Notes under the pieces: model-generated
The model's input: the letters and a program-made list of their open reading frames with translations, nothing else
Told to the model about the DNA's origin: nothing
Database searches by the model: none
IMG/VR virus record: IMGVR_UViG_3300032073_000008
Location: 32,001-96,000 of that record
From: a virus
Direction: 5' to 3' (one strand)
DNA length: 64,000 bases
Program-made: the position numbers and the translations under genes
Shown: positions 831 through 25,368 of the stretch, in pieces
Layout of the letters: each line of letters opens with the position of its first letter
Position numbering within the stretch: the stretch's first letter is position 1

Positions 831-3071
831 TTAAGCAATCGACTCTATCAAGTCACTCAACATTTTACGCGACTCTTTTCTAGAACCATTCGCTTTCTTA
901 AAGGCAGTGCGGATCTTTGCTTTTGTTGCATCACTACCGACCGCAATCGAAGTATTGCTCACTTCAAGATTTTTACCACCATGAATTAAGAACAGTCGAT
1001 CATAACCAAAGTTGTCTTCAAGCATAACAAACTTTTCTTTTTTGGCTCTCATATGATATGATTTAGCATCATACCAGTCCATACTGTTAGGAGCATTACG
1101 AGTCCATTTGTTTATACTACTCTCCATAATCCGATAACCAATAACAGTAGAACCAGTCCTTTCACGATACATATCTAAAAGGACTTTGGTGATCGCATCA
1201 CCATATCCAGTCACACGATAGCGTTTCTTGGTCACAGGATCATTTACATACAACACTGCAGTGCCACTTCTATTATGATAATAATTAGTTTGTGAACCCC
1301 ATTCTTTGTCAGGGTTAGTGAATTCCATAGGATGACTATCACCATCAGTCAAGAATATTGTATTCACAATATCAAGACGATTTTTCTTTTGGAAATCATC
1401 ATGCACTTTCATTGCAGCCATTATAGTCTCATCAAGAGGAGTACCGCTCAAAGCCAACCCTCTAGGAAAACGAAACCTGTTCATTTTCTTTTGAGCTTCC
1501 CAGCTGTATTTGTTGCGACGAGAGACACGGATATCATAATATCTCCCGACACAAAGAACGAATTTCATCATGTCATTGAAAGTTTGACGATTCATATTGT
1601 TATTGAAAAACTCTAATAATCTGAAACAATGATGATAACGCAAAACACTATCTCGTTTTTGTTGGGTCGCACTTTCAGAGTCAGAACCATACCAATTATT
1701 TGTAAAAGCATAAACACGGTATGGTATCTTCACCTGACGGCAGAACAAAACTAAATTCAACATTTGATCAATCGTGGCTTTAAGATCTTCCATCATTGAG
1801 CCAGACCAATCAACATACATGATTATACCATGACTTTTACCATCTGGTGTCACTGTTACTTTGCGGAAAATATCATCATTGTAACGATAGCTGTTCATCT
1901 TGACAGGATCAATCACACCAGTCTTTGCCACAGTTTGTCTAGAGTAAGCTGATGCACTTTTCTTCATCTCAAACTCTTTTGCCATGTAATTTACGCTTCT
2001 CTTATTATTATTCATGAAGTCATTAACATATCCTTCACCCAGATCATTCATCGCTTGATCAAACGAATCAGGCTCTTGAACTTTGAAATTTTCTAGAATT
2101 TCTTTTGCTGATATAATCAAGTCATTAATCGGTGCGTCATTCAAGAACACATTAGTGATTTTTATATCATCATCATCACCATGCTCAGCAGCAATATTGT
2201 TTCTTAATGACTGATCAGTTTTTGATTCAAGATCTTCTTCAGATGATTCACCACCTGTCTGTCCTGTCTGGTTATCATCAGAATCATCTTCATCATCTTT
2301 CCAGAAGTCATCTTGATCTTCATCAGAACTCCAGAAGTCACCATCATCTTCATCTTCATCTTCATCATCAGGAGTGCTACCAGATGAATCACCTGATTCA
2401 CTTTCATCTTCATCATCAGAATCATCAAAATCATAAGAGCCACTGCCATCAGTATCTTCTTGACTCTCATCTTTTGCCATTTCATCCATAGCTTTCTGCT
2501 TGTCAGCATTTTCTTCTTCTTGCTTTTGTTTACAGAAATCATACAAACGCTCAGTCAGGTCAACAACCTGATCCCATGTTTCAAGAGTTTCAATCTCATC
2601 AATCCATGGTTGCTCATCTGCCTCAATGCGAACACCAGCAGAACGACCGCATTTAAAATAAGTGTTGATACGATCAATAAGACCATAATTGTTTATTTGT
2701 TTGATGTCACCACCAAAGAAACCATCAGCAAGCATGCGTCTGTATGAAGAAACAAATGAAGTTCGCAGACCTTGATATCGTTTTTGAATTAGCTTTTCAA
2801 TCCTAGCATCTTCAATAACATTTAAAAAAGATCTGAAAGTTTGACCACGCTTATGAGTAGACTCATGCCATCCCTCTTCTGGAGTATACAAAGCATGACC
2901 AACCTCATGACCAACCAAATGATCATAAGTGTCAGACCTCATATCATCCCACATTGGTAGAGTAAGGATGCGGTCACGAACATTAAATGAAGCAGTCTTT
3001 GCTTGCTTATGAGAAACAGTAATGTTTTCAGTAGCAAGTAGACGAGCCAATGTATCTTTAGAAGTATTCAT
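831..3071 (-). CDS. CobT-like protein: N-terminal HExxH metallopeptidase-like domain, acidic linker, C-terminal vWA domain
   Basis: HEVGH motif, D/E-rich linker, MIDAS DWSGS...TP...LTDG. Start placed at MNTSKD (3071) because the ORF-track start at 3110 lies inside the promoter. Confidence 0.85.
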   Translation of the reverse strand: MNTSKDTLARLLATENITVSHKQAKTASFNVRDRILTLPMWDDMRSDTYDHLVGHEVGHALYTPEEGWHESTHKRGQTFRSFLNVIEDARIEKLIQKRYQGLRTSFVSSYRRMLADGFFGGDIKQINNYGLIDRINTYFKCGRSAGVRIEADEQPWIDEIETLETWDQVVDLTERLYDFCKQKQEEENADKQKAMDEMAKDESQEDTDGSGSYDFDDSDDEDESESGDSSGSTPDDEDEDEDDGDFWSSDEDQDDFWKDDEDDSDDNQTGQTGGESSEEDLESKTDQSLRNNIAAEHGDDDDIKITNVFLNDAPINDLIISAKEILENFKVQEPDSFDQAMNDLGEGYVNDFMNNNKRSVNYMAKEFEMKKSASAYSRQTVAKTGVIDPVKMNSYRYNDDIFRKVTVTPDGKSHGIIMYVDWSGSMMEDLKATIDQMLNLVLFCRQVKIPYRVYAFTNNWYGSDSESATQQKRDSVLRYHHCFRLLEFFNNNMNRQTFNDMMKFVLCVGRYYDIRVSRRNKYSWEAQKKMNRFRFPRGLALSGTPLDETIMAAMKVHDDFQKKNRLDIVNTIFLTDGDSHPMEFTNPDKEWGSQTNYYHNRSGTAVLYVNDPVTKKRYRVTGYGDAITKVLLDMYRERTGSTVIGYRIMESSINKWTRNAPNSMDWYDAKSYHMRAKKEKFVMLEDNFGYDRLFLIHGGKNLEVSNTSIAVGSDATKAKIRTAFKKANGSRKESRKMLSDLIESIA

Positions 3072-3100
3072 ATGATAGTCTCTCAACAAAATAGACGCCC

Positions 3101-3129
3101 ATTCTACCATATCAGGAGACCTGAGACAA
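3101..3129 (-). promoter_or_regulatory. Early sigma70-type promoter for the CobT-like gene
   Basis: TTGTCT-N17-TAGAAT with extended TG and an upstream A-tract. Confidence 0.75.
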
Positions 3130-3237
3130 CACTTTTTTCAATTAAAAACGGTAATTTTACCTATTTATTGATATTATTTTGGAATAAAAAGGTAGATTTT
3201 AAGAACTTTTTTGTATAAAAGGACAAAAGTCCTGTAT

Positions 3238-3250
3238 TATCAATAACTTA
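3238..3250 (+). promoter_or_regulatory. IHF consensus site
   Basis: TATCAATAACTTA is an exact match to WATCAANNNNTTR; a second match lies at 37816-37828. Confidence 0.5.
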
Positions 3251-3288
3251 GTGAAATACACTATTTTGCCCTTTTATAACTCTTCGGA

Positions 3289-3381
3289 TTAACTTAATGC
3301 AATCAGGCAGTTAGCGATTGTTACATAAACCGACACTTGAAACGCCCAACAGAAAAAGCAATCAGTTTTGCTATTTTCCAT
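3289..3381 (-). CDS. 30-aa hydrophobic peptide
   Basis: GAGGAGG Shine-Dalgarno, then MENSKTDCFFCWAFQVSVYVTIANCLIALS*, directly downstream of hsp20. Confidence 0.6.
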   Translation of the reverse strand: MENSKTDCFFCWAFQVSVYVTIANCLIALS

Positions 3382-3397
3382 ATTTCCTCCTCGAAAA

Positions 3398-3814
3398 TTA
3401 TTTAATTTCAATTTTTCGAGGACGCTTCTCTTCTGGCAAATTGACCTTTAGGTTCACTACAAGGATTCCTTTGTCTAGAGTCGCTCCGACTACTTCGACA
3501 TATTCAGACAGACGAAAAGTTCTCTGAAATCTTTTTGTGGATATTCCTTTGTGTAGATACTCAACATCAGTACCGTGGAATTGATCCCCAGTGATGTTCA
3601 AAGTTCTTTCATCTTGTTCAATGGTCAGATCTTTCATATCGAACCCAGCTACTGCCACTTCAATGGCATATTCATGCTCATCTACTTTAACCACATTGTG
3701 TGGTGGGTATGTATCTTTGGCGTTTCGATTGATGAATTCTAATTCATTGAAAAGGTGGTCAAACCCAACAAATGCTGCTCGTGGGAAAAGACTCGGTGTT
3801 TTAATACTCGTCAT
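3398..3814 (-). CDS. hsp20: Small heat shock protein (Hsp20/IbpA family)
   Basis: YPPHNVVK, IEVAVAGF, YLHKGIS..FQRTFRL, GILVVNL, PEEKRPRKIEI. Confidence 0.95.
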   Translation of the reverse strand: MTSIKTPSLFPRAAFVGFDHLFNELEFINRNAKDTYPPHNVVKVDEHEYAIEVAVAGFDMKDLTIEQDERTLNITGDQFHGTDVEYLHKGISTKRFQRTFRLSEYVEVVGATLDKGILVVNLKVNLPEEKRPRKIEIK

Positions 3815-3878
3815 AATGCTCTCCTTTTGTTTAAAGCAAGATTAATAAGTGAACCCGATTATTCGGCATCCACTCACC

Positions 3879-3886
3879 TATTTATA
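3879..3886 (-). promoter_or_regulatory. T4-type late promoter upstream of hsp20
   Basis: TATAAATA. Confidence 0.7.
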
Positions 3887-3892
3887 CTGACT

Positions 3893-4441
3893 CTACATAA
3901 GATTTTCAATAAAGCCAATAATTTTTTTCGTATCTTCAGGGACATTGTGTTCAAAAGCATGGACACATCCAGCTTCGCCCATCAATATTTTTTCCCCAAA
4001 CATATCTTCAATGTTAGCAACTTTCGTTACTCGCCCATTGATAAATGTTTCTGATTGATCAGAACCTCTATCAGCATAACGCTGTTCACGAACAGCATCA
4101 TCTGTTTTTAATACTATAATTGTTAGATCATGCCCTGCTCTCTTCACAGCCTCAAAGAACTTAGAAGAAGTCAATCTGTCACCCTCGAACACTACGACAG
4201 GTGATGGATTGTTTTCTAGGTATTCAATTGCCATTGGCTGTACTGCCATTGACAGTTTATCAGTACCAGCAAACACTTCTCCTTCATCATATTTACCAAA
4301 CAAACGGATATCTCCAGAAACATAACCATCAAGCAACTTAACTGGAGTATCTTTAGTCCACTCTCGTTTTGACATCCACTCACGCATAAGTGTTGTTTTT
4401 CCAGTTCCTGGAATTCCAATAATACCAATCACTTTACTCAT
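3893..4441 (-). CDS. P-loop nucleotide/DNA-base kinase (candidate 5-hydroxymethylpyrimidine-DNA kinase)
   Basis: GIPGTGKTT Walker A, VVVFEGDRL; last gene of the modification operon with an ATGA overlap to the TET/JBP gene. Confidence 0.7.
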   Translation of the reverse strand: MSKVIGIIGIPGTGKTTLMREWMSKREWTKDTPVKLLDGYVSGDIRLFGKYDEGEVFAGTDKLSMAVQPMAIEYLENNPSPVVVFEGDRLTSSKFFEAVKRAGHDLTIIVLKTDDAVREQRYADRGSDQSETFINGRVTKVANIEDMFGEKILMGEAGCVHAFEHNVPEDTKKIIGFIENLM

Positions 4442-5826
4442 GAAAAGAATCCTTCTAATGATGACTTTGTCACAACAGCTTCTGGATGATATTGCGATAA
4501 CATTCCTTCACCGCCTTTCTGTTTCAGATAATCATACCACTCATCTTCAGCCCACATATTTGGCGAAACACCATTCCAAAATTCTTTCCACAACTTGTGG
4601 TTCTTATTGAGTCTGCGATCATCAACATATTGTCTACGCAGTTTTTCATATTCCCAAGAACCAACCTCAAGCATTTTTTCACGGAAGTAGCATACAAGAG
4701 ATATGCGTTCCATTTCTTCAATAGTGGTTCCAGCAGGTGGTTTCAGTTCAGTGTTACCATGAATGCCACCATGATTATTGATCAACAAAAGATCTCCTGG
4801 ACGGATATTGATACCTACACGAAACTCTGGAAGGACAAGATAACCACCTTCCCAATTCTTTTCTTTAGCAACAACAGTAAGGTTTGAAAATCCTTCATTC
4901 AAATCACCAGCATCTCTGTGAGCTGCAGTTCTGAAGTTTTTATTTACAGTAATCGTAGTGAACGGTGTATCTTCACCAGCAACACGAAAGCGTGGATCTA
5001 GCTTGCTTGCAGCTTCGTTTTGAATACCATAACGAATAGGTAAATGCTCCTTAAATTTGTCAGCTAATTGACGCATGAAAGGATAGCACTTCTCATAGAC
5101 AGGATAGTTGTTCTCTGTATACGCAGTTGCTCGACCGTATGGAATACGAGGATATCGATCAAAGAATCCAGCAATACCTGACAACACCATGTTAGCATAT
5201 GTTGTCTCAGAGATATAGTTCTTTTGAGTTGCCTTTGCGTCTTTCTGAGCATCCTCTGCTGACATACCTTGCCATTCAGCAACCTTGTCATTGAAGAATG
5301 ATTCGTAATTATAACCACTATCAGTGATCTTAGATCTGATCCAAACTATACCACGAGATTCACCTGCTGTAATTGAAGCATGTTTTGCTCTGATTCTTTC
5401 TACTGGATCAGTGTCATCTTCAAACAGAGAAACTTCACGCTCAGCAAAGTGCTTCATAATATCAAGCTGTTCTTCAGTTACCCAATCACGACCGCCTTGC
5501 TTTGCTCCTTTTGGACCAGCAGCAAGACCACGATTTTGTGTAGGTAATGCAGCACCTAATAATCCTTCATAAGCACCGTGCTGTTGTTCTTCAGTAAAAA
5601 CATTTTTGCGAAACTTAAAGATAATGTTATCTTCATTATTCTCACCACCAAACCCAGCAGGAGCATAGAAGTCAGTATCTTCTTCACAAATAAAATCCCA
5701 GTCAGTATCTTCCATATATTGACCGAGTTTGTGTTCACAATCATCCCAAAACTTGGCTGTAATGATTCTGACATTGTTTACATTATCTACCTTAACATCA
5801 TACTTTTCGTTTATCACACCAATCAT
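4438..5826 (-). CDS. TET/JBP-family 2OG-Fe(II) DNA dioxygenase
   Basis: FTTITVNKNFRTAAHRDAGD (HxD), GGYLVLPE..V..RPGDLL, HGNT (distal His), ERISLVCYFREKM (RxS). Confidence 0.88.
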   Translation of the reverse strand: MIGVINEKYDVKVDNVNNVRIITAKFWDDCEHKLGQYMEDTDWDFICEEDTDFYAPAGFGGENNEDNIIFKFRKNVFTEEQQHGAYEGLLGAALPTQNRGLAAGPKGAKQGGRDWVTEEQLDIMKHFAEREVSLFEDDTDPVERIRAKHASITAGESRGIVWIRSKITDSGYNYESFFNDKVAEWQGMSAEDAQKDAKATQKNYISETTYANMVLSGIAGFFDRYPRIPYGRATAYTENNYPVYEKCYPFMRQLADKFKEHLPIRYGIQNEAASKLDPRFRVAGEDTPFTTITVNKNFRTAAHRDAGDLNEGFSNLTVVAKEKNWEGGYLVLPEFRVGINIRPGDLLLINNHGGIHGNTELKPPAGTTIEEMERISLVCYFREKMLEVGSWEYEKLRRQYVDDRRLNKNHKLWKEFWNGVSPNMWAEDEWYDYLKQKGGEGMLSQYHPEAVVTKSSLEGFFS

Positions 5827-6833
5827 ATCATAAATCTCTCTATTCCAACATTACTCATTTCATTTGTAAAAGTATTCATATGGTCTATCTTCCCAGTGTC
5901 TAGGAATATCTCCATTTTACTCTTACTTATCGAATTAGTCAAGTATTCATTTCTCAATGTCTCTTTTCTAGCATCCCACATGGGTGTCCAGTCAATACCA
6001 TCCCATCCATCTCTCTCCACTTGCTTTATTTCTTCAGCTTGTCTGTCAATATAATAACCAAGATAACGACCTCTACTCTTGCGAAACAGTTTCTTAAATG
6101 AACACAGTGCTGTTTCCATAGCAAAAAAGTCTGCTTTGCTCTCAGCATTTGGGTGTGTGCGTTTTACATCTTCGAGTATTTTCTTTCCTTCTCCTTCCAT
6201 CCATTGTATTTGATCATCTTCGAGCTTTTTATTCACCCAATCATCTTTACCTAAAGCATAACAAAGACCATTCCGATGAGATCGAGATCCAGAATAGTCA
6301 TGTAACCATAGACTTGGAACATCAACATTGAGACCAGCACACTGCTTTAGAGTTTGGATATAAAACCAAGATGTGTATCTTCCGAACTTGTGTAATGAAG
6401 TTACAGAATCCCAAACTTTTTGGAAGTTTTGATATTTGTCGCCACGACATAACTCTTCAAATGCATCTTCTTGTTTCCTACCACCAACCCATTCTTTATA
6501 GGAAACAAATTGATCAGCAAGATGACCTTTATTCCATTTTGTATCTGTTTGATATCTGAGACGCGAATAGTTTTCATTGTTCCATTCACGCAAACGATCA
6601 ACACCAACCAACTCCATATCAGGGAACTCATTCCAGATAAGGTATGCTGTTGGGAAGTTGTATGTTGTTCCATATAACCAACAGAGCCATAACTTCTGTT
6701 CTGTGTTATATTCAAACCGATCAAAGAAGTAATTTGTGAGATACAATGCTGAGTCACAATCTTCTATCTCAAGACTCCACTTAAACCAGTTGACAAATGC
6801 TTGTCTACGATGTTCACTTAATCTATAATCCAC
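5823..6833 (-). CDS. Alpha-glutamyl/putrescinyl-thymine pyrophosphorylase clade-2-like amino acid:DNA transferase
   Basis: WLYGTTY, RYQTDTKWNKG, FGRYTSWFY, GSRSHRNGL, ETALCSFKK, RYLGYYIDRQ; GTG start overlaps the GNAT stop. Confidence 0.8.
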   Translation of the reverse strand: MDYRLSEHRRQAFVNWFKWSLEIEDCDSALYLTNYFFDRFEYNTEQKLWLCWLYGTTYNFPTAYLIWNEFPDMELVGVDRLREWNNENYSRLRYQTDTKWNKGHLADQFVSYKEWVGGRKQEDAFEELCRGDKYQNFQKVWDSVTSLHKFGRYTSWFYIQTLKQCAGLNVDVPSLWLHDYSGSRSHRNGLCYALGKDDWVNKKLEDDQIQWMEGEGKKILEDVKRTHPNAESKADFFAMETALCSFKKLFRKSRGRYLGYYIDRQAEEIKQVERDGWDGIDWTPMWDARKETLRNEYLTNSISKSKMEIFLDTGKIDHMNTFTNEMSNVGIERFMI

Positions 6834-7489
6834 TAAAAGAATTCCTCTAGAGTGTTTGGCTCATCACCTATTAATTTATCACGCATCCAAAACTCTCCTA
6901 CAGAAGAAATAGCTTCTTCTACAGTAGCAGTCTTTTTCTTACCAAAGCCATGAGACTCAAGCGATTCATCAAACAATTGTTTGATCACCTTTGGATCTTT
7001 AGGCAAAGCCAGATGCGGGACATTAATTGCTGTTGCCCTAAATGTGCACTGCTCCCTGATAGAAGGAAACAGTGGTTGATCAGAACGCAACGACCCAGTT
7101 GGATCAACAGCCCAAAATATCAAACCATTTCTTTTATGCCAAGTTATAGAAGATGGAGTGCAAGATATTTTCAAACGACTCATGCCATTATTAAAAGCAT
7201 CACTCATTACTCTTTCCCAGATAGCTGTAGCATATCCCTTTCCTTCATGACCTTGCCTAGTTACAATCTCATATAGATTAATATATCTCGATCTTTGACT
7301 ATAAGTAGCAAACACAAATGCAACCATTTCGCCATCAACCTCTAAGGCAAATGGCTTATTATCTTTTTCATAGTTTTTAAAACGAAACCACAAACTGTGT
7401 GATGAATTGAGGAACTTTGTATTTTTTCCTTCAGGGGAGTTCTCAATGACTTTCTCAATCATCTCTTGTGAACATCTTACTATGCGCAT
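6833..7489 (-). CDS. GNAT-family acetyltransferase
   Basis: NLYEIVTRQGHEGKGYAT acetyl-CoA-binding motif A; WHKRNG. Confidence 0.8.
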   Translation of the reverse strand: MRIVRCSQEMIEKVIENSPEGKNTKFLNSSHSLWFRFKNYEKDNKPFALEVDGEMVAFVFATYSQRSRYINLYEIVTRQGHEGKGYATAIWERVMSDAFNNGMSRLKISCTPSSITWHKRNGLIFWAVDPTGSLRSDQPLFPSIREQCTFRATAINVPHLALPKDPKVIKQLFDESLESHGFGKKKTATVEEAISSVGEFWMRDKLIGDEPNTLEEFF

Positions 7490-8172
7490 TGTAAGTCTCT
7501 CACTAATGCACCACCACGCAATGGAGAAGATTTCTCTAGCTTTCCATTGTATGTGTATGTTACATACATGTCTGTTCTTTGTTGATTTGTAATTGCACTT
7601 CTTTTTAGAATATCTTTTGTTGATGCGAATACAATACCATTATTTCGCTCACTATACCATAGTGGTCTTGCTTCATTTCTAAATCCAGTTAGACTCTTAT
7701 CTTTTTTGATACGACAGACAGCCATACTTGATGGGTAAAAATCATTCAATGGATCATTACCAGCCTCATATGATTTCAATATCAATTCACTGTCATTAGC
7801 TGTTTCAGTGTTATATTTCCACTTCTCTTTATCTTCTTGTGATATAACACCATTGTGAACAATACTTTGATCACCATTAGAGAAAGGTTGATTGTATCGA
7901 AGATCAGATGTTGAATAGCGAATATGACCAATAAGGTAGATACCACCATCCTCATTTATCATACTCTGAATTGGATATTTTGCGAGGAACTCATCACAAG
8001 GGATGCCCTCTTTTATCGTATATATCTTAGAATCTTTGACATATGATACACCAGTCGCATGTTTCCCTCTTATCATAGATTCGCGGAAAATACGCTCTAC
8101 CAGTTTAACATTCTCAATACTACCACGACTGACAGAGGATCTCTCTAACCAAACGCCTATCACACCACACAT
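7480..8172 (-). CDS. Class II (Ntn) glutamine amidotransferase, stand-alone glutaminase domain
   Basis: N-terminal MCGVIG, RG.HATG, GHIRYST, NQPF, HNGVI, NDSE. Confidence 0.9.
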   Translation of the reverse strand: MCGVIGVWLERSSVSRGSIENVKLVERIFRESMIRGKHATGVSYVKDSKIYTIKEGIPCDEFLAKYPIQSMINEDGGIYLIGHIRYSTSDLRYNQPFSNGDQSIVHNGVISQEDKEKWKYNTETANDSELILKSYEAGNDPLNDFYPSSMAVCRIKKDKSLTGFRNEARPLWYSERNNGIVFASTKDILKRSAITNQQRTDMYVTYTYNGKLEKSSPLRGGALVRDLQCA

Positions 8173-8200
8173 AATATACCCTTTATGTAAATAAACAGAT

Positions 8201-8229
8201 ATTATACATTATCAAATGTAATTTGTCAA
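8201..8229 (-). promoter_or_regulatory. Perfect-consensus sigma70 promoter heading the DNA-modification operon
   Basis: TTGACA-N17-TATAAT overlapping the end of def. Confidence 0.85.
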
Positions 8230-8745
8230 GTTCTTCTTTCTTAGCTTATCTAACTTCTTTTTCTGTTTCTTTGCCTTTTCAACATGATATGATGATGCTT
8301 TGCTCAAGAAGTTAATCCCAATAAGGTGGTCATATTCGTGCTGAAAACACTTAGATGTAAAGTCAGTCAAATTTTTTGTTATTGTGACACCGTTATAATT
8401 TGAGAATCTAGCTCTTATATTTACAGGTCTTTTTACTGGGATGAAGATTCCAGGAAAACTCAAACACCCTTCTTCTTCTGTCAAGACCTCATCAGAGTAC
8501 CCAACAATCCTTGGATTGAACACTGGTAAGACATCATCTGGTTTAGCTGGTAATCCAATAACAAATACTGATAAATTTATTCCGCATTGGTTTGCTGCCA
8601 GACCAACACCGCTGTTTTCAAGCATTGTAGCCTTGAGCCTTTCAAACAATACAACTGGATCCATCTGTGGGTTTTGAAAATCAAACTCTTGTGTTGGTGT
8701 TCTTAAACACTGATGTGAGCTTGATACTAATTTATATGGCTTCAT
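8212..8745 (-). CDS. def: Peptide deformylase
   Basis: GVGLAANQ, EGCLS, QHEYDHL.G motifs. Confidence 0.95.
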   Translation of the reverse strand: MKPYKLVSSSHQCLRTPTQEFDFQNPQMDPVVLFERLKATMLENSGVGLAANQCGINLSVFVIGLPAKPDDVLPVFNPRIVGYSDEVLTEEEGCLSFPGIFIPVKRPVNIRARFSNYNGVTITKNLTDFTSKCFQHEYDHLIGINFLSKASSYHVEKAKKQKKKLDKLRKKNLTNYI

Positions 8746-10457
8746 GCTGCTATCCTGCTAAATGATTTAAACTTCTCAAAGCGTATTTGACTGCGGAACT
8801 TATCAGTCAACACATCACCTTTGGTATGTGTGATAATAAAGACATTGGTGTCAGACATGTTGTTTAGTAGTTTAGTCAACTCATCTGTTCCAGTTAAGTC
8901 AAGAGAGTTATCAAACACCTCATCAAGTATCAATAGGTTGGTGTTAGTAGAGTTTTTTAATTTGGCTATTGCTCTCCATGTAAGTAGTAGAGCAATATCA
9001 ATACGAGTCTTTTCACCCTCAGAGAAACTTGCATATGAAAACTCATCACGATGACGACTTTTGATTATCTCATTAAACTCCTCATCAAGCTCAAAGTTCA
9101 CAAAGAAGTCTAGAGCTGATAGATACTTATTAACTAGCTTGTTCATAATAGGAACATACTGCTTAATTATTTTAGACTTGATGCCACCGTCTTTCAGCAT
9201 AGTTGAGGCAACCTCAAATAACGCTTTATCATCAGATAGATCTGACGCTTGCTTCTTGTAAACATTCAAGTCTTTCTTGAATTGTTTAAGTTTACCACTA
9301 GAATCGCTGTCGGCAGTAGCCTGCTGTTCAGCCTCTTTGATCTTTTTCTCCACACCACTAATCTGTTTACCATACAAATTTATCTGGGTCTGGCAATCGC
9401 GTATTTTATTCTGAACATCTTGTATCTCATACTGCACAGTGTTCATCTCGCTCAGTTCTTTGTGTAGAATATCATACTCTTCATTTAATTGTTCAACAGC
9501 TTCTTGCGTCTTGTGTAGTATCTTAGTAGTATCATCAACCTTCTGTTTCTTAACCTTCATGTCAATGATCTGTTCGCAAGTCGGGCAGTTATCATTCTTC
9601 TCATAAAACTTAATTCGCTTCTTAGCTTTTGATGACTTATCTTCCAGCTTATCAAGAAGTGATGTAATCTTATTTGACTTAGCTTCAAACTTCCCTTTGT
9701 GAGAGATTGAATCAATCAGAGTGTCAACTGTCATGGTAAGAGCAATACAAAGATTGTCAGCATCCTGCTTTGATTCAACATAACCTTGTGCCTCTTCTTT
9801 TAAGGAGCTGATCAGCTTGTTAGCATCAGATGTGACCTTCTTCAAGTAGTCTTGCTGTATATCTATTTTCTCTTGAGTTATGTCAAGCTGATATTGAATA
9901 TCGGATATACTTCGCTTGTTCTCAGATACTCGCTCTTTCAATAGCATATTCATTGTTGAGAATATCTGGATATCTAGCAGGTCTTCAATAACTTCTCTGC
10001 GATCACGAGTAGACAGCTGCATGAATGGAGTGAATGAAGCATTACCCAAGATAACAATCTGAGTGAATGACTTGTAGTTCAACTTTAGAATAGTGTTCTC
10101 TAGGATAAGCTGATAGTCTCTCGCATTTCCAGGTTGGTCAATCATCTTACCATTCTTGTATATCTCAAAGAATGCTGGCTTCATACCTCTACGAACTTTA
10201 TATCCAACTGTACCAATAGAAAACTCAATAGAAACCTCACAACCCTTTTCATTGATGCTGTTACAAAGCAATGCCTTATTGACTTTGCGGAATGGCTTAT
10301 TGAATAGTACAAAGGTCAGTGCATCCAGTATAGTCGACTTCCCAGCACCGTTTTCTCCAGTTATAACTGTGCTTGGAGAACGATTCAACTGTATTTCAGT
10401 CGCCACATTACCTGTGCTCAGGAAATTTTTATAAGATAACTTCTTGAATTCAATCAT
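8742..10457 (-). CDS. gp46: Recombination endonuclease ATPase subunit (Rad50/SbcC-like)
   Basis: GENGAGKST, CPTC zinc hook, FSEGEK, LLILDEVFD. Confidence 0.97.
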   Translation of the reverse strand: MIEFKKLSYKNFLSTGNVATEIQLNRSPSTVITGENGAGKSTILDALTFVLFNKPFRKVNKALLCNSINEKGCEVSIEFSIGTVGYKVRRGMKPAFFEIYKNGKMIDQPGNARDYQLILENTILKLNYKSFTQIVILGNASFTPFMQLSTRDRREVIEDLLDIQIFSTMNMLLKERVSENKRSISDIQYQLDITQEKIDIQQDYLKKVTSDANKLISSLKEEAQGYVESKQDADNLCIALTMTVDTLIDSISHKGKFEAKSNKITSLLDKLEDKSSKAKKRIKFYEKNDNCPTCEQIIDMKVKKQKVDDTTKILHKTQEAVEQLNEEYDILHKELSEMNTVQYEIQDVQNKIRDCQTQINLYGKQISGVEKKIKEAEQQATADSDSSGKLKQFKKDLNVYKKQASDLSDDKALFEVASTMLKDGGIKSKIIKQYVPIMNKLVNKYLSALDFFVNFELDEEFNEIIKSRHRDEFSYASFSEGEKTRIDIALLLTWRAIAKLKNSTNTNLLILDEVFDNSLDLTGTDELTKLLNNMSDTNVFIITHTKGDVLTDKFRSQIRFEKFKSFSRIAA

Positions 10458-15216: not shown

Positions 15217-15243
15217 AGCTATCTCCTATAGTTAAATAAAAGA

Positions 15244-15297
15244 TGCGTTCCTTCGACACAATTGTCTACTTCCGTTCACTTATAGTGAATGAACGAT
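15244..15297 (-). ncRNA. glnA-type (glutamine-I) riboswitch
   Basis: AUCGUUCAUUCACUAUAAGUGAACGGAAGUAGACAAUUGUGUCGAAGGAACGCA: P1 CGUUC/GAACG, P2 UUCAC/GUGAA, GGAAGUA/GAA E-loop, P3 GACA/UGUC. Confidence 0.88.
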
Positions 15298-15350
15298 GTA
15301 GTCTTTTGACCGATGACTTATCGGAGCATATCAGAATAGATATACACCAT

Positions 15351-15358
15351 TATTTATA
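15351..15358 (-). promoter_or_regulatory. Late promoter driving the riboswitch-peptide unit
   Basis: TATAAATA just downstream of the gp23 terminator. Confidence 0.8.
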
Positions 15359-15363
15359 AGAAT

Positions 15364-15390
15364 AAAAAAAGAGGCTCCGAAGAGCCTCTT
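15364..15390 (-). terminator. gp23 terminator with cUUCGg tetraloop
   Basis: AAGAGGCTC-TTCG-GAGCCTCTT followed by a T run. Confidence 0.92.
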
Positions 15391-15423
15391 ATAAAGTTGT
15401 CTGTTAAGACAGATCTTTTTATC

Positions 15424-16791
15424 TTATACCAAGTTAGCAACTTTAACGCGACGGTAGTAAGAGTTTTTACTAGCAAAGTTAACAGCACTTGCAGCAAATG
15501 GGTTCGCAACCATGCCGTAGCGAGTTTTGAAACCGATTTTTGGTTGGAAGGTATTCTCACCAACCGCACGAACCATTTGTAGAGGCACATATGGGCAGTA
15601 GAATAAACCAGCATCAAAGGCACTATCACCTTTGTAACCAATAGTGAAGTAGTTGTTAGTTGTATCAGAGAAGTATGGATCAATGTATACTTTGATACGA
15701 CCATTTAATACACCAGCGAAAGTGTTACCAGTGTCATCTACTTGCAAGTTGTTGCTAAGTGCAGGAGCATAGTCAAGAACACCAGCCATTTGAAGAGCAG
15801 AAGCTACATCAGATGAAGTGATCAAAACATTACCTTTACCGCGACGAGTTGCTTTACCGATTGCGTTAGCTTCACGCTCGATTTGGAACATTAAGCCTTT
15901 GAACTTCTCAACAGACCAGCGACCGTTTGAGTCAGTGTCTAGATCGAAAACACCATTATTAGTTACAAGACCTTGTGCACCGATAGTAGCAGTGTAGTTG
16001 ATAGTACGAACAACTTCACGGTTAATTTCAGCAAGGATCTCAGTAGATAAGATGTTGCTTAACTCTTGCTCAGCATCTAAACCATGGACAGCTTTAAGAT
16101 CTTGAGCTAATTCCATAGTGTATTCTGCTTTTAACGCACGAGATACAGCTGTTACACTGATTTTCTCGATAGAGAACGCCATTTCAGCAAAAGAGTTACC
16201 AGCTGCATCGCCAAGAGCTTCAGCAGTAGCAGTTGACATACCAGTGTGAACAGTATAGCCAGAACCAGAAGCAGCTTCAGTTGCATCTTGACCAGCTTGA
16301 GTAGTACCAGCAGCACCATCGATTACACCACCGAAGTTTGCTGTGTTAGCAGTCTCACTACCGATTGCAGAGAATGAAGTGTCAGCTTCGTTAAATAAGG
16401 CTTCAGTACCAGCTTGAGTATTGAGGCGTGATTTCATCGCAAAGATAAGACCAGTTGGACCAGTCATTGGCTGTACGCCACAAATATCATAAGCGATAAG
16501 GTTAGGCATTGAGCGACGCACTAAGCTGATTAGGACAGGATCGAAAGTATCGACACTACCGTCACCAGCAGTAGAGCTAGATGCACCCATTGCGTTTACT
16601 GGTGCTGCTTCGCCTAAAAGCGAAGGAGCGTGAGCACCGCCAGACTGAGCAGATTGCTCAGCTGCAGCTCGTTCTTGGTTTTCTAAAAGAGTTGCAACAG
16701 TTGAACGCTTGTGAGCGTCAGTGATCGAAGGAAGATCAGCGTGCTCAAGAACAGGTTGCCACTTCTTTTGTAGACTATCAGATTGAATCAT
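15424..16791 (-). CDS. gp23: Major capsid protein
   Basis: KWQPVLEH, DICGVQPMTGPTGLIFAM, SRALKAEYTMELAQDLKAVHGLDAE, FQPKIGFKTRYG. Confidence 0.99.
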   Translation of the reverse strand: MIQSDSLQKKWQPVLEHADLPSITDAHKRSTVATLLENQERAAAEQSAQSGGAHAPSLLGEAAPVNAMGASSSTAGDGSVDTFDPVLISLVRRSMPNLIAYDICGVQPMTGPTGLIFAMKSRLNTQAGTEALFNEADTSFSAIGSETANTANFGGVIDGAAGTTQAGQDATEAASGSGYTVHTGMSTATAEALGDAAGNSFAEMAFSIEKISVTAVSRALKAEYTMELAQDLKAVHGLDAEQELSNILSTEILAEINREVVRTINYTATIGAQGLVTNNGVFDLDTDSNGRWSVEKFKGLMFQIEREANAIGKATRRGKGNVLITSSDVASALQMAGVLDYAPALSNNLQVDDTGNTFAGVLNGRIKVYIDPYFSDTTNNYFTIGYKGDSAFDAGLFYCPYVPLQMVRAVGENTFQPKIGFKTRYGMVANPFAASAVNFASKNSYYRRVKVANLV

Positions 16792-16835
16792 TATAGGTTC
16801 TCCTTAAAATAAGACCTTTTATTAAATTACTTGAT

Positions 16836-16843
16836 TATTTATA
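16836..16843 (-). promoter_or_regulatory. Late promoter for gp23
   Basis: TATAAATA. Confidence 0.85.
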
Positions 16844-16848
16844 AAAAA

Positions 16849-17925
16849 TTACTTTTTAATGCTTTTTGAAATGGCATTCAAGTACGCACTCATGCTAGGA
16901 TCAGCATGATTTGTCTCTTCAGTTAATTCATCTAACTCAAGAGGCTCTTCATCGACAACCACTTGCTCAGCGACAACTTCTTCTTTAGGGAAGTAGCTCT
17001 CTTTGAGTGTCTCTAACTTTTCAGCATATGAATCTTCATCTTCAAACTCTACGCCTTCAGACAAAGAAGCCAGCTTAACGGCTTGAGACTCTGTGATATC
17101 TTCGCAAGCAGAAGCTAAGATCGCAGATTTCTTTGACTCAACTAATTCTTTGCGAAGAACGATGTTTCTTTCCATTTCTTCATTGATTGAAGATTCGAGC
17201 TCAGTAACCTTAGATGCTAATTCATCAACAAGGTCAACTTTCTCTTCTGGAATATCGATGTAGTTTTCAGTGAACAGACTGCGTAAACCAGTCATGAAGT
17301 TCTCAACGATTTCTGCTCGAACTCCTTGCTCAACTGCTAACTCATTTTCTTGCATCCACTCTTCAGCGACATACTCTAAGTAGTCATCTAAGCGTGATGA
17401 AAGAGATTCATTAATGGTAGATTTTTCTGCTTCAAGTTCTGCTTCAAAATCAACAGTAACAGATTCTAAAACTTCGTTGACTTTTGAAACTACTGCAGCT
17501 TCAAAGATAGTTGTAGCTTTTGATACAAAATCTTCTGAAAGATCTTGACCACCAAACATTGCTTCAACATCTTCAGCGATAGATACATCTTCAGCACTAA
17601 TCTGACGGATTTCTTTGATAGATTGTGTATCAGCTTCTTCTGAAACTTCTTCAGCTTCAAAACCTTCAACCTTCAAAGATGCCATAACCTTACCATAGTT
17701 TGCTGCGATGTCGTCTTTCTTCATGCCTTTAACAGCATCCATCATAGCATTGATCATACCAACTTTTGTTTTGGGAGCAGGCACTTGTTTAGGAGCACCC
17801 TTCTTAATTTCTGCAGCATTGTCGTCAGCGATTTTTTCGCCATCAACTTCTGGTGCAGCATTCGCTTCTTCGAGAGCGTCATCAGTTTGCTCAACTTCTA
17901 CACCCTCTAGTTCTAAATCAGACAT
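16849..17925 (-). CDS. gp22: Prohead core scaffolding protein
   Basis: KATTIFEAAV, DDYLEYV..EWM.EN.LA, LFTENYIDIPEEKVD; acidic; between gp21 and gp23. Confidence 0.95.
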   Translation of the reverse strand: MSDLELEGVEVEQTDDALEEANAAPEVDGEKIADDNAAEIKKGAPKQVPAPKTKVGMINAMMDAVKGMKKDDIAANYGKVMASLKVEGFEAEEVSEEADTQSIKEIRQISAEDVSIAEDVEAMFGGQDLSEDFVSKATTIFEAAVVSKVNEVLESVTVDFEAELEAEKSTINESLSSRLDDYLEYVAEEWMQENELAVEQGVRAEIVENFMTGLRSLFTENYIDIPEEKVDLVDELASKVTELESSINEEMERNIVLRKELVESKKSAILASACEDITESQAVKLASLSEGVEFEDEDSYAEKLETLKESYFPKEEVVAEQVVVDEEPLELDELTEETNHADPSMSAYLNAISKSIKK

Positions 17926-17957
17926 GGATTTCTCCTTTAAATTAATTGAATACAGTC

Positions 17958-17965
17958 TATTTATA
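17958..17965 (-). promoter_or_regulatory. Late promoter for gp22
   Basis: TATAAATA. Confidence 0.8.
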
Positions 17966-17970
17966 AAAAT

Positions 17971-18627
17971 TTATAATTTGGAAATAAAGTCCTTAAAAAC
18001 AGCCAACTTTGTCTCTTCGAGCTCTTGAGAACTGGCTTTTTGAACTTCATTCTTATAATCAGCAATATTGGCTTCGCGGATAACACCGTTTTCCCAAACC
18101 CACTCTTTGCCTTCCATGATACCTTGCACGAAAGCATCTGGTGCTGATGGGTCTGCAACAATATCAGCTGCAGTTGCGAGATAGAAGTCATTTTGAACTT
18201 CACCAACACCAGCTTTTGTTTGTTTGACTGAACCCATACCACGAGATGAAACACCTAGTTGAGCACCCTCGTCCATCAAAGATTTGACGATAGCACCATA
18301 AGGAGTTTCTGTCATGATTTTAGCTTTACCAAGAAAGTTAGAACCATCACGCTTCAACTCAGTGATCATATGCGAAACACGCTCAAGATTTATAGTTGGA
18401 CCTTGTGGATGTCCAAGCTCACCATAAGCACGATTCTTTTCAACATACTCTTCAGAGTATCGTTTGATTTCTTTATCTAAAACCTCAGCAGGATATAATC
18501 GACCGTTGCGGTTTTGTATATCACCTTGCAAGAAAACACCTTCAATAAAATATGACTTCTTACCATCTTTATCTTTGGCTTCTGTAAGGTAATTAATATC
18601 TTCGTTTACTTCGCATATTAGCTTCAT
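17971..18627 (-). CDS. gp21: Prohead protease
   Basis: NRNGRLYP, GELGHP, GVSSRGMGS, ADIVADPSAPDAFV. Confidence 0.97.
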   Translation of the reverse strand: MKLICEVNEDINYLTEAKDKDGKKSYFIEGVFLQGDIQNRNGRLYPAEVLDKEIKRYSEEYVEKNRAYGELGHPQGPTINLERVSHMITELKRDGSNFLGKAKIMTETPYGAIVKSLMDEGAQLGVSSRGMGSVKQTKAGVGEVQNDFYLATAADIVADPSAPDAFVQGIMEGKEWVWENGVIREANIADYKNEVQKASSQELEETKLAVFKDFISKL

Positions 18628-23727: not shown

Positions 23728-25368
23728 TTAGTAATTTTCAAAGTTCCCATGAGTGATGTAATCTTGCGTGTCAAATGGGTCAGATGGTGTGTAATCTACA
23801 ACATTATCATCAGGTATGCCATCATCATGGAACCCAAATGGTAACATACTCTCCATCATTTCTTGATCTGTTTTTTCTCTTAATTGGATTAGTGTATTTA
23901 TGTCTGTCATATCTTTAAAATATGACTGGTCTGTCAGCCATGCAAATAAAACAAGACACATCACTAGATCATCATGAGCACCAGACTCTGCTTCATACGA
24001 GTTTCTTTTTCTCGAGAAAGTTGATAGCTCTTTTATAGTATTAAAATCGTTAATTATAAGTTGATCTTGTTCAATCAACAGCTTTAGTATAGAACATCCT
24101 ACAGCCTTCACGCTTTTAGTTGTTCTAATTCCTTTATCACACCTTTTGCTGAACCCAGTTGATATTCTTTTACCTGATCTTCCAGCACTTTCGGTGAATA
24201 ATATGTTTTCATATTCAAATTCATAATGAAGAAGCTCTGCGACTTGTTCACCAATATCATTTATTTCAACTAATACAGTCGCTTCATTAAAGCTCTTGCA
24301 TGTTCTATATATTACTTCTGAGTATTCAGCAGGAGTGATAAAGTTATCTCTGTAAACACAGACTTGTTTATATGGCATTTCTGTTATGTCTATTATCTGA
24401 AATGCTGAATAGTCTAAACCCTTTCCTCTTGATACATCAACGACACAAGCATAGGTATGATCTGGCTGTCCTTGATCATACATTGATATGCCACTACCCT
24501 CAACTAATGGTCTTTTATCCACTAATGTTTTTAGTTTACTACCATCAATCAATGTTCCAGAACTGCCAAGAAACTCACACTCATATTCTTGAGCAAACTT
24601 CTCAAGATCATAATCCATAGACTGCAATGTTTCTTCTTTCCAAGCATCATCTCTTCCAGGAACATCAGTCCAATTTACCCTGACATACTCATATCCATTT
24701 TTACCATCTCTAGCACCTTCGCAAGTTTTATAAAAATGATTCAAACCATTTGGTGTGGATGTCAATAATATTTTAGTTGTGTTACCAGAAGATATTGTGG
24801 GGAATACAGAAGCAAAAAATTCATCCCAATTATCTACGAATGCAGTTTCATCAATGTATAGGAATGATACAGACTTACCACGAATAGCAGATGAGGATGT
24901 TGCAGCAGCAATAATTTTACAACCATTCTCAAACTGAACTGAACCTTTGTTCCACTCAACGACACCTTGTTGCATCCATTGCGGTAGTGCTTCATATGCA
25001 ATCTTAATTCTGTCAAGAATCTCACGAGCTGAGTCGCCCTTGTTCGCAAGCAACGCAACAGTCTTATGCTCATTGAATAGAATGAAGTGTAATATAACAG
25101 CAACTGCGGTTGTAGTTTTACCTGCCTGCCGAGATGTGACCACAGTTACTCTACGATTATCAGTTATCTTCTCAATAATATCTCGTTGATAATCATACAG
25201 ACGCATTGGTATTAGACCGTGATCTACATGAACAATTTGTATGTAGTTCTCAGCAAAATAGAGTGGATCTTTAGCACACTTCACATATTCTGTGACTTGC
25301 TCTTGAGTCCAGCTGATCTGAACACCCTTCTTTTTGAGAAGAGCATTTCCATTATATGTATCAGCCAA
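23728..25368 (-). CDS. gp17: Terminase large subunit
   Basis: SRQAGKTT, YIDETAF, STPNGLNHFY, VDVSRG.G.DYS, HDDLVM. Confidence 0.98.
   Translation of the reverse strand: MADTYNGNALLKKKGVQISWTQEQVTEYVKCAKDPLYFAENYIQIVHVDHGLIPMRLYDYQRDIIEKITDNRRVTVVTSRQAGKTTTAVAVILHFILFNEHKTVALLANKGDSAREILDRIKIAYEALPQWMQQGVVEWNKGSVQFENGCKIIAAATSSSAIRGKSVSFLYIDETAFVDNWDEFFASVFPTISSGNTTKILLTSTPNGLNHFYKTCEGARDGKNGYEYVRVNWTDVPGRDDAWKEETLQSMDYDLEKFAQEYECEFLGSSGTLIDGSKLKTLVDKRPLVEGSGISMYDQGQPDHTYACVVDVSRGKGLDYSAFQIIDITEMPYKQVCVYRDNFITPAEYSEVIYRTCKSFNEATVLVEINDIGEQVAELLHYEFEYENILFTESAGRSGKRISTGFSKRCDKGIRTTKSVKAVGCSILKLLIEQDQLIINDFNTIKELSTFSRKRNSYEAESGAHDDLVMCLVLFAWLTDQSYFKDMTDINTLIQLREKTDQEMMESMLPFGFHDDGIPDDNVVDYTPSDPFDTQDYITHGNFENY

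Follow-up and report, generated by a model that had tools for sequence, protein, structure and literature searches.

Known hypermodification systems and the locus studied

By carrying thymidine hypermodifications, phage DNA is shielded from nucleases of restriction and CRISPR systems; the enzymes that install them serve as tools of DNA chemistry. Phage TET dioxygenases that oxidise thymine (T) in DNA have been demonstrated in vivo and in vitro (PMC13229309). Lee et al. (2021) reported metavirome contigs carrying Tet_JBP together with genes for a kinase and an amino-acid:DNA transferase (AADT), with amidotransferase partners of unknown function (PMC8989533), and O'Toole et al. (2026) described one T-dioxygenase subclass, clade C1, as "consistently linked" with glutamine amidotransferases (GATases) as well as with P-loop kinases and with AADTs (PMC13229309). 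Here we describe a cluster of this already known type in the IMG/VR viral record IMGVR_UViG_3300032073_000008, a contig of 110,317 bp with a CheckV completeness of about 61%; the whole stretch analysed, called the window below, comprises 64,000 nucleotides (bases 32001-96000 of the contig). We consider it reasonably probable that its five-gene operon hypermodifies T on DNA to 5-acetylaminomethyl-deoxyuridine (5-acetylaminomethyl-dU), with ammonia (NH3) supplied by a glutaminase and with several of the enzymes held on the replicative sliding clamp.

Genes, families, intact motifs, conservation, co-occurrence and shared protein tails were computed directly from the sequences. A first-pass annotation of the window, made by a model from its letters and a list of its open reading frames (ORFs), had noted that such neighbourhoods were predicted computationally before, which is correct, but the cluster is less new than it supposed, as the accounts of 2021 and 2026 precede it. 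In comparison with the published accounts that we consulted, three features look new: a predicted ammonia-delivering complex of glutaminase and AADT, the apparent loss of the amino-acid anchors in the AADT, and C-terminal tails of the polymerase type.

Organization of the five-gene cassette

Five minus-strand ORFs occupy positions 3893-8172 of the window and overlap by 10, 1, 4 and 4 nt in the list of ORFs with translations. According to their Pfam assignments, they are transcribed in the order glutaminase (GAT), GNAT, AADT, TET and kinase:

8201..8229, minus strand: sigma-70-type promoter, TTGACA at 8229-8224, 17-nt spacer, TATAAT at 8206-8201, matching the consensus at 12/12 positions
7480..8172, minus strand: class II (N-terminal nucleophile, Ntn) glutaminase, 230 aa, Pfam GATase_6/GATase_7
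6833..7489, minus strand: GNAT-fold acyltransferase, 218 aa, Acetyltransf_1
5823..6833, minus strand: amino-acid:DNA transferase (AADT, aGPT-Pplase2), 336 aa, GTG start, PF18724
4438..5826, minus strand: TET/JBP-family Fe(II)/2-oxoglutarate 5-methylpyrimidine dioxygenase, 462 aa, PF12851
3893..4441, minus strand: P-loop kinase (Ploopntkinase3), 182 aa, predicted 5-hydroxymethyl-dU (5-hmdU) DNA kinase, PF18751

The dedicated, perfect sigma-70 promoter named in the first-pass annotation is borne out at 8229-8201: it is the sole 12/12 site within positions 3000-9000, an interval in which the total count of promoter-like sites is not above that of shuffled sequences. Among the relatives, L005, L010, L036/L093 and L068 carry a 10-11/12 promoter site about 30 nt upstream of the glutaminase start. 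The five overlapping ORFs also hold with the families that had been proposed for them, since every product scores above its Pfam cut-off with catalytic motifs intact, and the profile checks suggested for Tet_JBP, ADDT and P-loop kinase returned PF12851, PF18724 and PF18751. The annotation had further stated that the cluster contains neither a dUMP hydroxymethylase nor a C5-methyltransferase; this now extends beyond the cluster, as PF00303 (ThyA-type) and PF00145 (C5-methyltransferase) have no match in the contig or in five related contigs with completeness up to 89%. Co-occurrence of the five genes in related genomes was likewise found, their order recurring in diverged marine phage contigs.

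The glutaminase and its predicted partner transferase

The glutaminase is recognised by both GATase_6 and GATase_7 (E 1e-9 and 3e-6; 38.9 bits for GATase_6 against a cut-off of 27), and a profile search of the Protein Data Bank (PDB) ranked 6lbp, the glutaminase domain of PurF, first (E 4e-8). The protein begins with Met-Cys, and the nucleophile C2, together with R85, N107-G108 and D127, is invariant in 11 relatives; in Ntn glutaminases, the initiator Met must come off to expose the Cys. Its 230 residues consist of the glutaminase domain only, so the protein stands alone, without a fused acceptor or synthase domain. An Asp-Leu-Gln sequence at its C-terminus is invariant in 11/11 relatives, and Leu227 and Gln228 contact the AADT in the complex model described below.

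The AADT scores 84.5 bits for the ADDT family PF18724 (cut-off 26.2, E 1.2e-23). In the alignment, the catalytic residues E243, T244 and C247 of PaMx11 gp46 (PMC11472151) have E240, T241 and C244 as their counterparts. C244 is among only eight columns that are invariant across M6 gp51, PaMx11 gp46, a ViI-like protein, Cr30 and the AADT clade of the window. In a low-identity alignment, the glycine anchors W146 and K150 of PaMx11 gp46 are replaced by Y153 and F157; Y153 is invariant among 13 relatives and F157 is kept in 12 of them. The combination of Trp146 and Lys150, by which the glycine:DNA transferases M6 gp51 and PaMx11 gp46 are recognised, is therefore not found in the window AADT.

A search seeded with the glutaminase yielded 80 loci. 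On contigs that reach far enough, the glutaminase gene has an AADT gene within about 4 kb, often adjacent to it, with L116 as the sole exception; the pairing of the two is close to obligate. The pair also occurs in minimal TET-GAT-AADT-kinase cassettes that lack the GNAT.

Complex prediction for the AADT and the glutaminase gave a score of 0.77, against 0.00 for the best of three controls. Of 80 solved complexes, 58 attain this mark, as do 2 of 110 mismatched pairs; these counts apply only approximately, since our own alignments were used. At least 92% of contacts are shared between the prediction runs, the pLDDT (predicted local distance difference test) of the partner is at least 88, and the model supports a glutaminase that docks with its active-site face on the AADT. 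On the glutaminase side, the predicted interface comprises residues 1, 33-38, 86, 88, 109 and 112 of the active-site face and the invariant Leu-Gln at 227-228. On the AADT side, it comprises the segments 38-45, 68-72 and 278-284, which flank, in sequence, D27, Y54, Y58 and D287, residues that align with the PaMx11 gp46 pocket receiving the C5 substituent.

The contig holds no match at E < 0.09 to the PaMx11 gp47 flavin lyase, the M6 pyridoxal phosphate (PLP) decarboxylase, the M6 radical S-adenosylmethionine (radical-SAM) enzyme or the thymidylate-synthase-like hydroxymethylases. Because of the AADT docking model, the lost glycine anchors and the missing flavin, PLP and radical-SAM enzymes together, we favour NH3 as the nucleophile, which would lead to 5-aminomethyl-dU in a single step and leave the GNAT to cap the amine.

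The dioxygenase, the kinase and the acyltransferase

The TET protein matches Tet_JBP (PF12851) over residues 238-383 (E 2.4e-23, 82.6 bits against a cut-off of 34.9). Its Fe(II) ligands H303, D305 and H356 and the 2-oxoglutarate-binding residues R374/R382 are invariant in sets of 26 and 40 relatives. An AlphaFold2 model built on a 40-sequence alignment reached a pLDDT of 85 (a single-sequence model, at pLDDT 33, was discarded), and its best Foldseek matches are CcTet, human TET2 and NgTET1, with E values from 4e-10 to 8e-8. The 230 residues N-terminal to the Pfam match were considered as a fused ParB-like or other DNA-binding domain; this idea was dropped because the alignment of the model to TET2 and CcTet spans most of its length and ParB gave no match. 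ParB_N (PF02195) has no match at E <= 1 anywhere in the 110-kb contig, about 61% complete, and the nearby cognate ParB-like gene that marks the ParB-dependent 5-methylpyrimidine dioxygenases (5mYOX) is accordingly absent within it.

The kinase belongs to Ploopntkinase3 (PF18751; E 5.7e-18, 65.6 bits against a cut-off of 27) and carries the Walker A motif GIPGTGKTT. Membership in the family of M6 gp54, which had been expected, was ruled out, as M6 gp54 belongs to PF18748. A natural kinase-TET fusion of 661 aa (P0094), whose kinase part is PF18751, would link the oxidation and phosphorylation steps.

The GNAT scores 34.6 bits for Acetyltransf_1 (cut-off 20.7, E 2.5e-8), and its acyl-CoA-binding loop, EGxEGxGYA, is conserved among relatives. 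Past the shared fold it is unrelated to PaMx11 gp48 (E 0.45), and its profile returned nothing below E 0.1 from the PDB. It is predicted to N-acetylate the aminomethyl base on DNA.

Conservation, module swapping and choice of substrate

Forty-four IMG/VR loci encode a TET 60-90% identical to that of the window. The full order GAT-GNAT-AADT-TET-kinase recurs both in close relatives and at 41-70% protein identity. Other TET orthologues (61-67% identity) lie in the same slot, between gp46/peptide deformylase and Hsp20, and are followed there by a TET-associated glycosyltransferase (TAGT, PF20691), which sugar-nucleotide enzymes accompany at some loci and not at others. In the TET tree, loci with one tailoring module are interspersed with loci that have the other, and the window clade is sister to a glycosyltransferase-type locus (support 95/91). 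Since orthologous TETs share the slot with either module, the simplest reading is that a single TET product on DNA, a hydroxymethyl pyrimidine, feeds whichever module is present, which points to 5-hydroxymethyluracil (5hmU) as the common intermediate. The absence of a C5-methyltransferase from all six contigs and the swapping of the TAGT module also suggest, by context, that the TET acts on T rather than on 5-methylcytosine (5mC). Four relatives encode ThyX and therefore make ordinary dTMP.

A second cassette type, seen at L036:4233-7060, L027:10048-12865 and about 20 loci of the glutaminase-seeded set, holds three genes between the glutaminase and the AADT. Their products are a protein of 296 aa that matches Amidoligase_2 only faintly, another kind of GNAT (Acetyltransf_10) and a protein of 433-439 aa that belongs to no family; this cassette probably makes a more elaborate base. 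Five further loci (L113, L115, L120, L129 and L131) contain distant glutaminase-AADT pairs beside a thymidylate-synthase-like gene and no TET, and the thymidylate-synthase-like gene resembles the M6 dUMP hydroxymethylase. From this company it follows that the pair appears to serve both pre- and post-replicative routes to 5hmU.

Polymerase-like C-terminal tails

The known ligands of the gp45 sliding clamp include the hydrophobic-acidic C-termini of T4 gp43, gp55 and gp33 (PMC2988020). Three proteins of the cassette end in sequences of this kind, which resemble a T4-type clamp ligand in the TET and the GNAT and do so loosely in the AADT:

4441..4464, minus strand: TET C-terminal tail SSLEGFFS, resembling a sliding-clamp-binding tail
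6836..6856, minus strand: GNAT C-terminal tail NTLEEFF, strict tail motif
5826..5846, minus strand: AADT C-terminal tail GIERFMI, matching this motif more loosely

The gp43 DNA polymerase of the phage itself carries SSLESFFA at the end of its C-terminal half. Of the contig's 115 ORFs, only this half, the TET and the GNAT have the strict motif. In the 44 related loci, it is present on the TET (38/43), the GNAT (14/14) and the TAGT (12/12), and absent from the glutaminase (0/18), the kinase (0/23) and all five neighbouring gene families. The remaining strict hits in these loci are gp43 C-termini, small HNH endonucleases and one 106-aa ORF that matches no family. The GNAT tail is missing in the two most distant GNAT relatives, L116 and L121, and the AADT tail misses the strict pattern throughout (0/20), as G replaces S/T.

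Because the TET, the AADT and the GNAT carry the same hydrophobic-acidic tail as gp43, they would probably be held on the clamp; we give an even chance that the tails bind gp45. Their distribution fits the proposed pathway, in that enzymes which touch DNA are tailed and the AADT-docked glutaminase is not, with the kinase as the exception.

Polymerase-type tails were also observed on small HNH/endonuclease VII-like proteins encoded beside the modification cassettes of sister phages (TLEKFFV, SLEEFMV; L028:9965-10630, L034:8005-8676 and L045:7684-8013). A MazG-like nucleotide pyrophosphohydrolase outside the window (G000 24213-24623, minus strand, = L056:4213-4623) ends in the looser tail DLEKFL.

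Proposed pathway and alternative explanations

The operon would be expressed early and act after replication, wholly on the DNA polymer. In the proposed sequence of reactions, the TET/JBP enzyme would hydroxylate thymine in phage DNA to 5hmU, and the P-loop kinase would convert this to 5-phosphomethyl-dU. Cys244 of the AADT would then attack C6, expelling the phosphate and forming an exocyclic methylene intermediate; the docked glutaminase would hydrolyse glutamine and supply the NH3 that gives 5-aminomethyl-dU directly, and the GNAT would acetylate the amine to 5-acetylaminomethyl-dU. Retention of the TET, the AADT and the GNAT on the gp45 sliding clamp would tie the modification to freshly replicated DNA. 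The chemistry of every step is inferred, including nucleophile and acyl donor, and so are the binding to the clamp and a biological role presumed to be protection from host nucleases. A TET-initiated hypermodification of thymine that proceeds by phosphorylation and an AADT is very probable. That the NH3 of the glutaminase is the nucleophile and an acetylaminomethyl base the product is a more evenly balanced proposition. The route outlined in the first-pass annotation, from TET through kinase and glutaminase-fed transferase to GNAT, agrees with every computational test that was run, the product itself being a prediction. It had also been called a shorter route that runs entirely on DNA; the contig contains no flavin lyase of the PaMx11 type.

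A more far-reaching version, which we regard as rather doubtful, makes gp45 the platform, and perhaps a required activator, of base modification, in addition to an AADT-docked glutaminase that makes the NH3 nucleophile. The TET, the AADT, the GNAT and the glycosyltransferase of sister phages might then all ride gp45 through their polymerase-type tails, a possibility that we hold just as tentatively. By analogy, gp45 would take the role that a ParB-like CTPase clamp has in ParB-dependent phage T-dioxygenases.

Several observations weigh against the acetylaminomethyl pathway or parts of it. The mapping of the AADT onto PaMx11 gp46 relies on an alignment of about 18% identity, and the GNAT has no informative solved relative to indicate its donor or acceptor. 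The kinase has no PF18748 match and, by BLASTP, shares only the P-loop with the characterised 5-hmdU kinase M6 gp54. The TET, at about 450 aa and ParB-less within the 110-kb contig, fits no experimentally tested clade that could be identified, and certain clade C1 enzymes that lack a ParB failed to act on T or 5mC when expressed in E. coli (PMC13229309). At about 61% completeness, the contig may also lack a region that encodes a methyltransferase or hydroxymethylase. Regarding the clamp, the AADT tail (GLEEFM or GLEDFF in relatives) is a looser match than those of the TET and the GNAT, the kinase has no clamp-like tail though it is required to act on DNA, and the sole precedent for a phage DNA-modifying enzyme tethered to the clamp, binding of the T4 alpha-glucosyltransferase to gp45, was not reproduced in a 2025 preprint.

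The alternative to which we assign a small but real probability is that, as happens in M6, ViI and SP10, the AADT installs a free amino acid (e.g. glutamine, glutamate, glycine or serine) to give a new amino-acyl thymine. The glutaminase-like protein would then act downstream, either as an amidohydrolase resembling EgtC, which acts on gamma-glutamyl conjugates, or by amidating the carboxylate, and the GNAT would acetylate the amine of the amino acid. Amidohydrolases are known among the class II GATase-like proteins that stand alone, which suits this proposal. So does the more elaborate chemistry suggested for the family by the weakly amidoligase-like 296-aa protein and the 439-aa protein of sister cassettes, and every characterised AADT uses amino acids or polyamines (PMC8989533, PMC13458397). 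However, the complex model buries the active-site face of the glutaminase on the AADT, where it would be closed to DNA, and the glutaminase carries no clamp-like tail, unlike the TET, the GNAT and the AADT. The glycine-anchoring residues are lost from the AADT, the window cassette encodes no ATP-dependent ligase or synthetase for amidating a carboxylate, and minimal TET-GAT-AADT-kinase cassettes exist. Far less probable is a cytosine pathway, in which the TET would oxidise 5mC to 5-hydroxymethylcytosine and the kinase, the AADT, the glutaminase and the GNAT would build a hypermodified cytosine. Phage TETs of clades A and B oxidise 5mC, and genes for P-loop kinases and aGPT-Pplase occur on some of the contigs that encode them (PMC8256090); incompleteness of the window contig also leaves room for this pathway. 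Nevertheless, the PF00145 searches of the contig and its five relatives were negative, a C5-methyltransferase accompanies just 6% of the phage 5mYOX pathways that were mined (PMC13229309), and the glutaminase-AADT pair also accompanies thymidylate-synthase-like hydroxymethylases. Least probable of all, to the point of being hardly credible, is a cluster that has no role on phage DNA and acts instead on free nucleotides, RNA or a small metabolite, or is decaying. The generic folds of the GNAT, the kinase and the glutaminase would allow it, but TET/JBP enzymes and AADTs are polymer-DNA enzymes wherever tested (PMC8989533, PMC13229309, PMC11472151), three of the enzymes have polymerase-like tails, which suggests that they act while bound to DNA, and many diverged contigs retain both the catalytic residues and the order of the genes.

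If the acetylaminomethyl pathway holds, the cassette would represent a route that works wholly on ordinary T-containing DNA and needs no special nucleotide pool; it would reach 5-aminomethyl-dU in one step and might introduce a new type of acceptor for class II amidotransferases. Ammonia delivery to the AADT is thereby proposed as the function of the amidotransferase partners left unassigned in the field. Clamp riding offers a possible answer to how post-replicative modifiers keep pace with replication, and a clamp requirement, if true, could explain why some ParB-less TETs are inactive in E. coli.

Genome context and flanking signals

The genes of the contig lie nearly all on the minus strand, and the neighbour order is gp47, gp46, peptide deformylase, cassette, Hsp20 and a CobT-like protein. 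The gp45 and gp44 genes lie just upstream of the window, gp45 at about 2 kb. Judged by gp46, its nearest relatives in culture are Melnitz, a myophage of Methylophilales (48%), and marine cyanomyophages (47%); the carrier of the cassette is a marine T4-like phage. Megablast of the region against cultured phages gave no match, and the nearest cultured TETs, those of DLP6, C48C1 and Cr30, are only 44-51% identical. The stretch is present in marine and viral metagenomes, and RNA sequencing runs contain just small portions of it. Because more than half of its sampled words occur in four further studies, beyond three possible source samples, the cassette is common in marine viromes and its chemistry ecologically widespread.

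The peptide deformylase gene (8212-8745, minus strand) lies directly upstream of the cassette, and its stop codon sits within the cassette promoter. The same adjacency is present at glycosyltransferase-type sister loci, so the position of a deformylase next to an Ntn glutaminase is probably incidental. Past the kinase stop codon lies one further feature:

3844..3878, minus strand: hairpin, candidate 3' end of the transcription unit, found by folding

This hairpin (3878-3844) has 15 bp, a dG of -20.2 kcal/mol and a z of -2.6 by folding; a consensus terminator scan called no terminator downstream of the kinase gene.

A glutamine riboswitch aptamer was found in the late region at 15242-15297 on the minus strand (Rfam RF01739, 59.6 bits against a gathering threshold of 35, E 1e-12). 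A phage with this riboswitch senses glutamine, and its DNA modification probably uses glutamine up. Outside the window, the gp43 DNA polymerase is split into two minus-strand genes, G000 15316-16410 and 16679-18133 (= L055), which cover positions 7-496 and 497-851 of phrog_262 and have a 90-aa ORF between them.

Comparison with known systems

The closest described pathway is that of PaMx11, which comprises the AADT gp46, the flavin lyase gp47, the acetyltransferase gp48 and the kinase gp49 (PMC8989533; structures in PMC11472151). As predicted for the present locus, a kinase, an AADT and a GNAT-fold acetyltransferase act on DNA, the Glu-Thr-x-x-Cys motif of the AADT is kept, and the predicted end product, 5-acetylaminomethyl-dU, is the same. 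The two differ in the origin of 5hmU, which PaMx11 obtains from a dUMP hydroxymethylase before replication, whereas the window phage is predicted to form it with a TET on DNA. They also differ in the origin of the amine: PaMx11 uses glycine and an FAD-dependent lyase, while the window contig encodes no lyase homologue and has a glutaminase instead. In addition, the GNAT and the kinase of the window are not orthologous to their PaMx11 counterparts. M6, ViI and PhiW-14 (Lee 2018, 2021) share the passage from 5hmU through 5-phosphomethyl-dU to displacement by a nucleophile via an AADT, but in these phages 5hmU arises at the nucleotide level, and the nucleophile is glycine, serine or putrescine; the gp54 kinase of M6 belongs to PF18748, and that of the window to PF18751.

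On the side of the dioxygenase, the locus resembles the clusters of the ParB-dependent 5mYOX clade C1 (O'Toole 2026, PMC13229309) in its TET/JBP enzyme with an extension past the last conserved Cys, in the lack of an adjacent C5-methyltransferase, and in its GATase, P-loop kinase and AADT neighbours. It differs in that the 110-kb contig has no ParB_N match and the TET carries a gp43-type tail; the tested ParB-independent T-dioxygenases have roughly 300 aa, against about 450 aa for the window TET. The base J pathway (JBP1/2 and a glucosyltransferase) and the phage TET/TAGT clusters likewise convert T to 5hmU on DNA before tailoring it, whereas tailoring in the window would fall to a kinase, an AADT, a glutaminase and a GNAT, with no glycosyltransferase.

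The tails find their counterpart in T4 gp43, gp55 and gp33 (PMC2988020), whose short hydrophobic-acidic C-terminal motif is of the same type as that of the window phage's gp43. In the window, such tails sit on predicted DNA base-modifying enzymes; the only comparable claim, binding of the T4 alpha-glucosyltransferase to gp45, is disputed. For the glutaminase, PurF is the closest solved relative and offers a chemical parallel, as its NH3 replaces a phosphate-ester leaving group on carbon, which is also what is predicted here. In PurF, however, the glutaminase is fused to its acceptor domain, whereas in the window it is a separate protein predicted to dock on an unrelated enzyme of the helix-hairpin-helix type.

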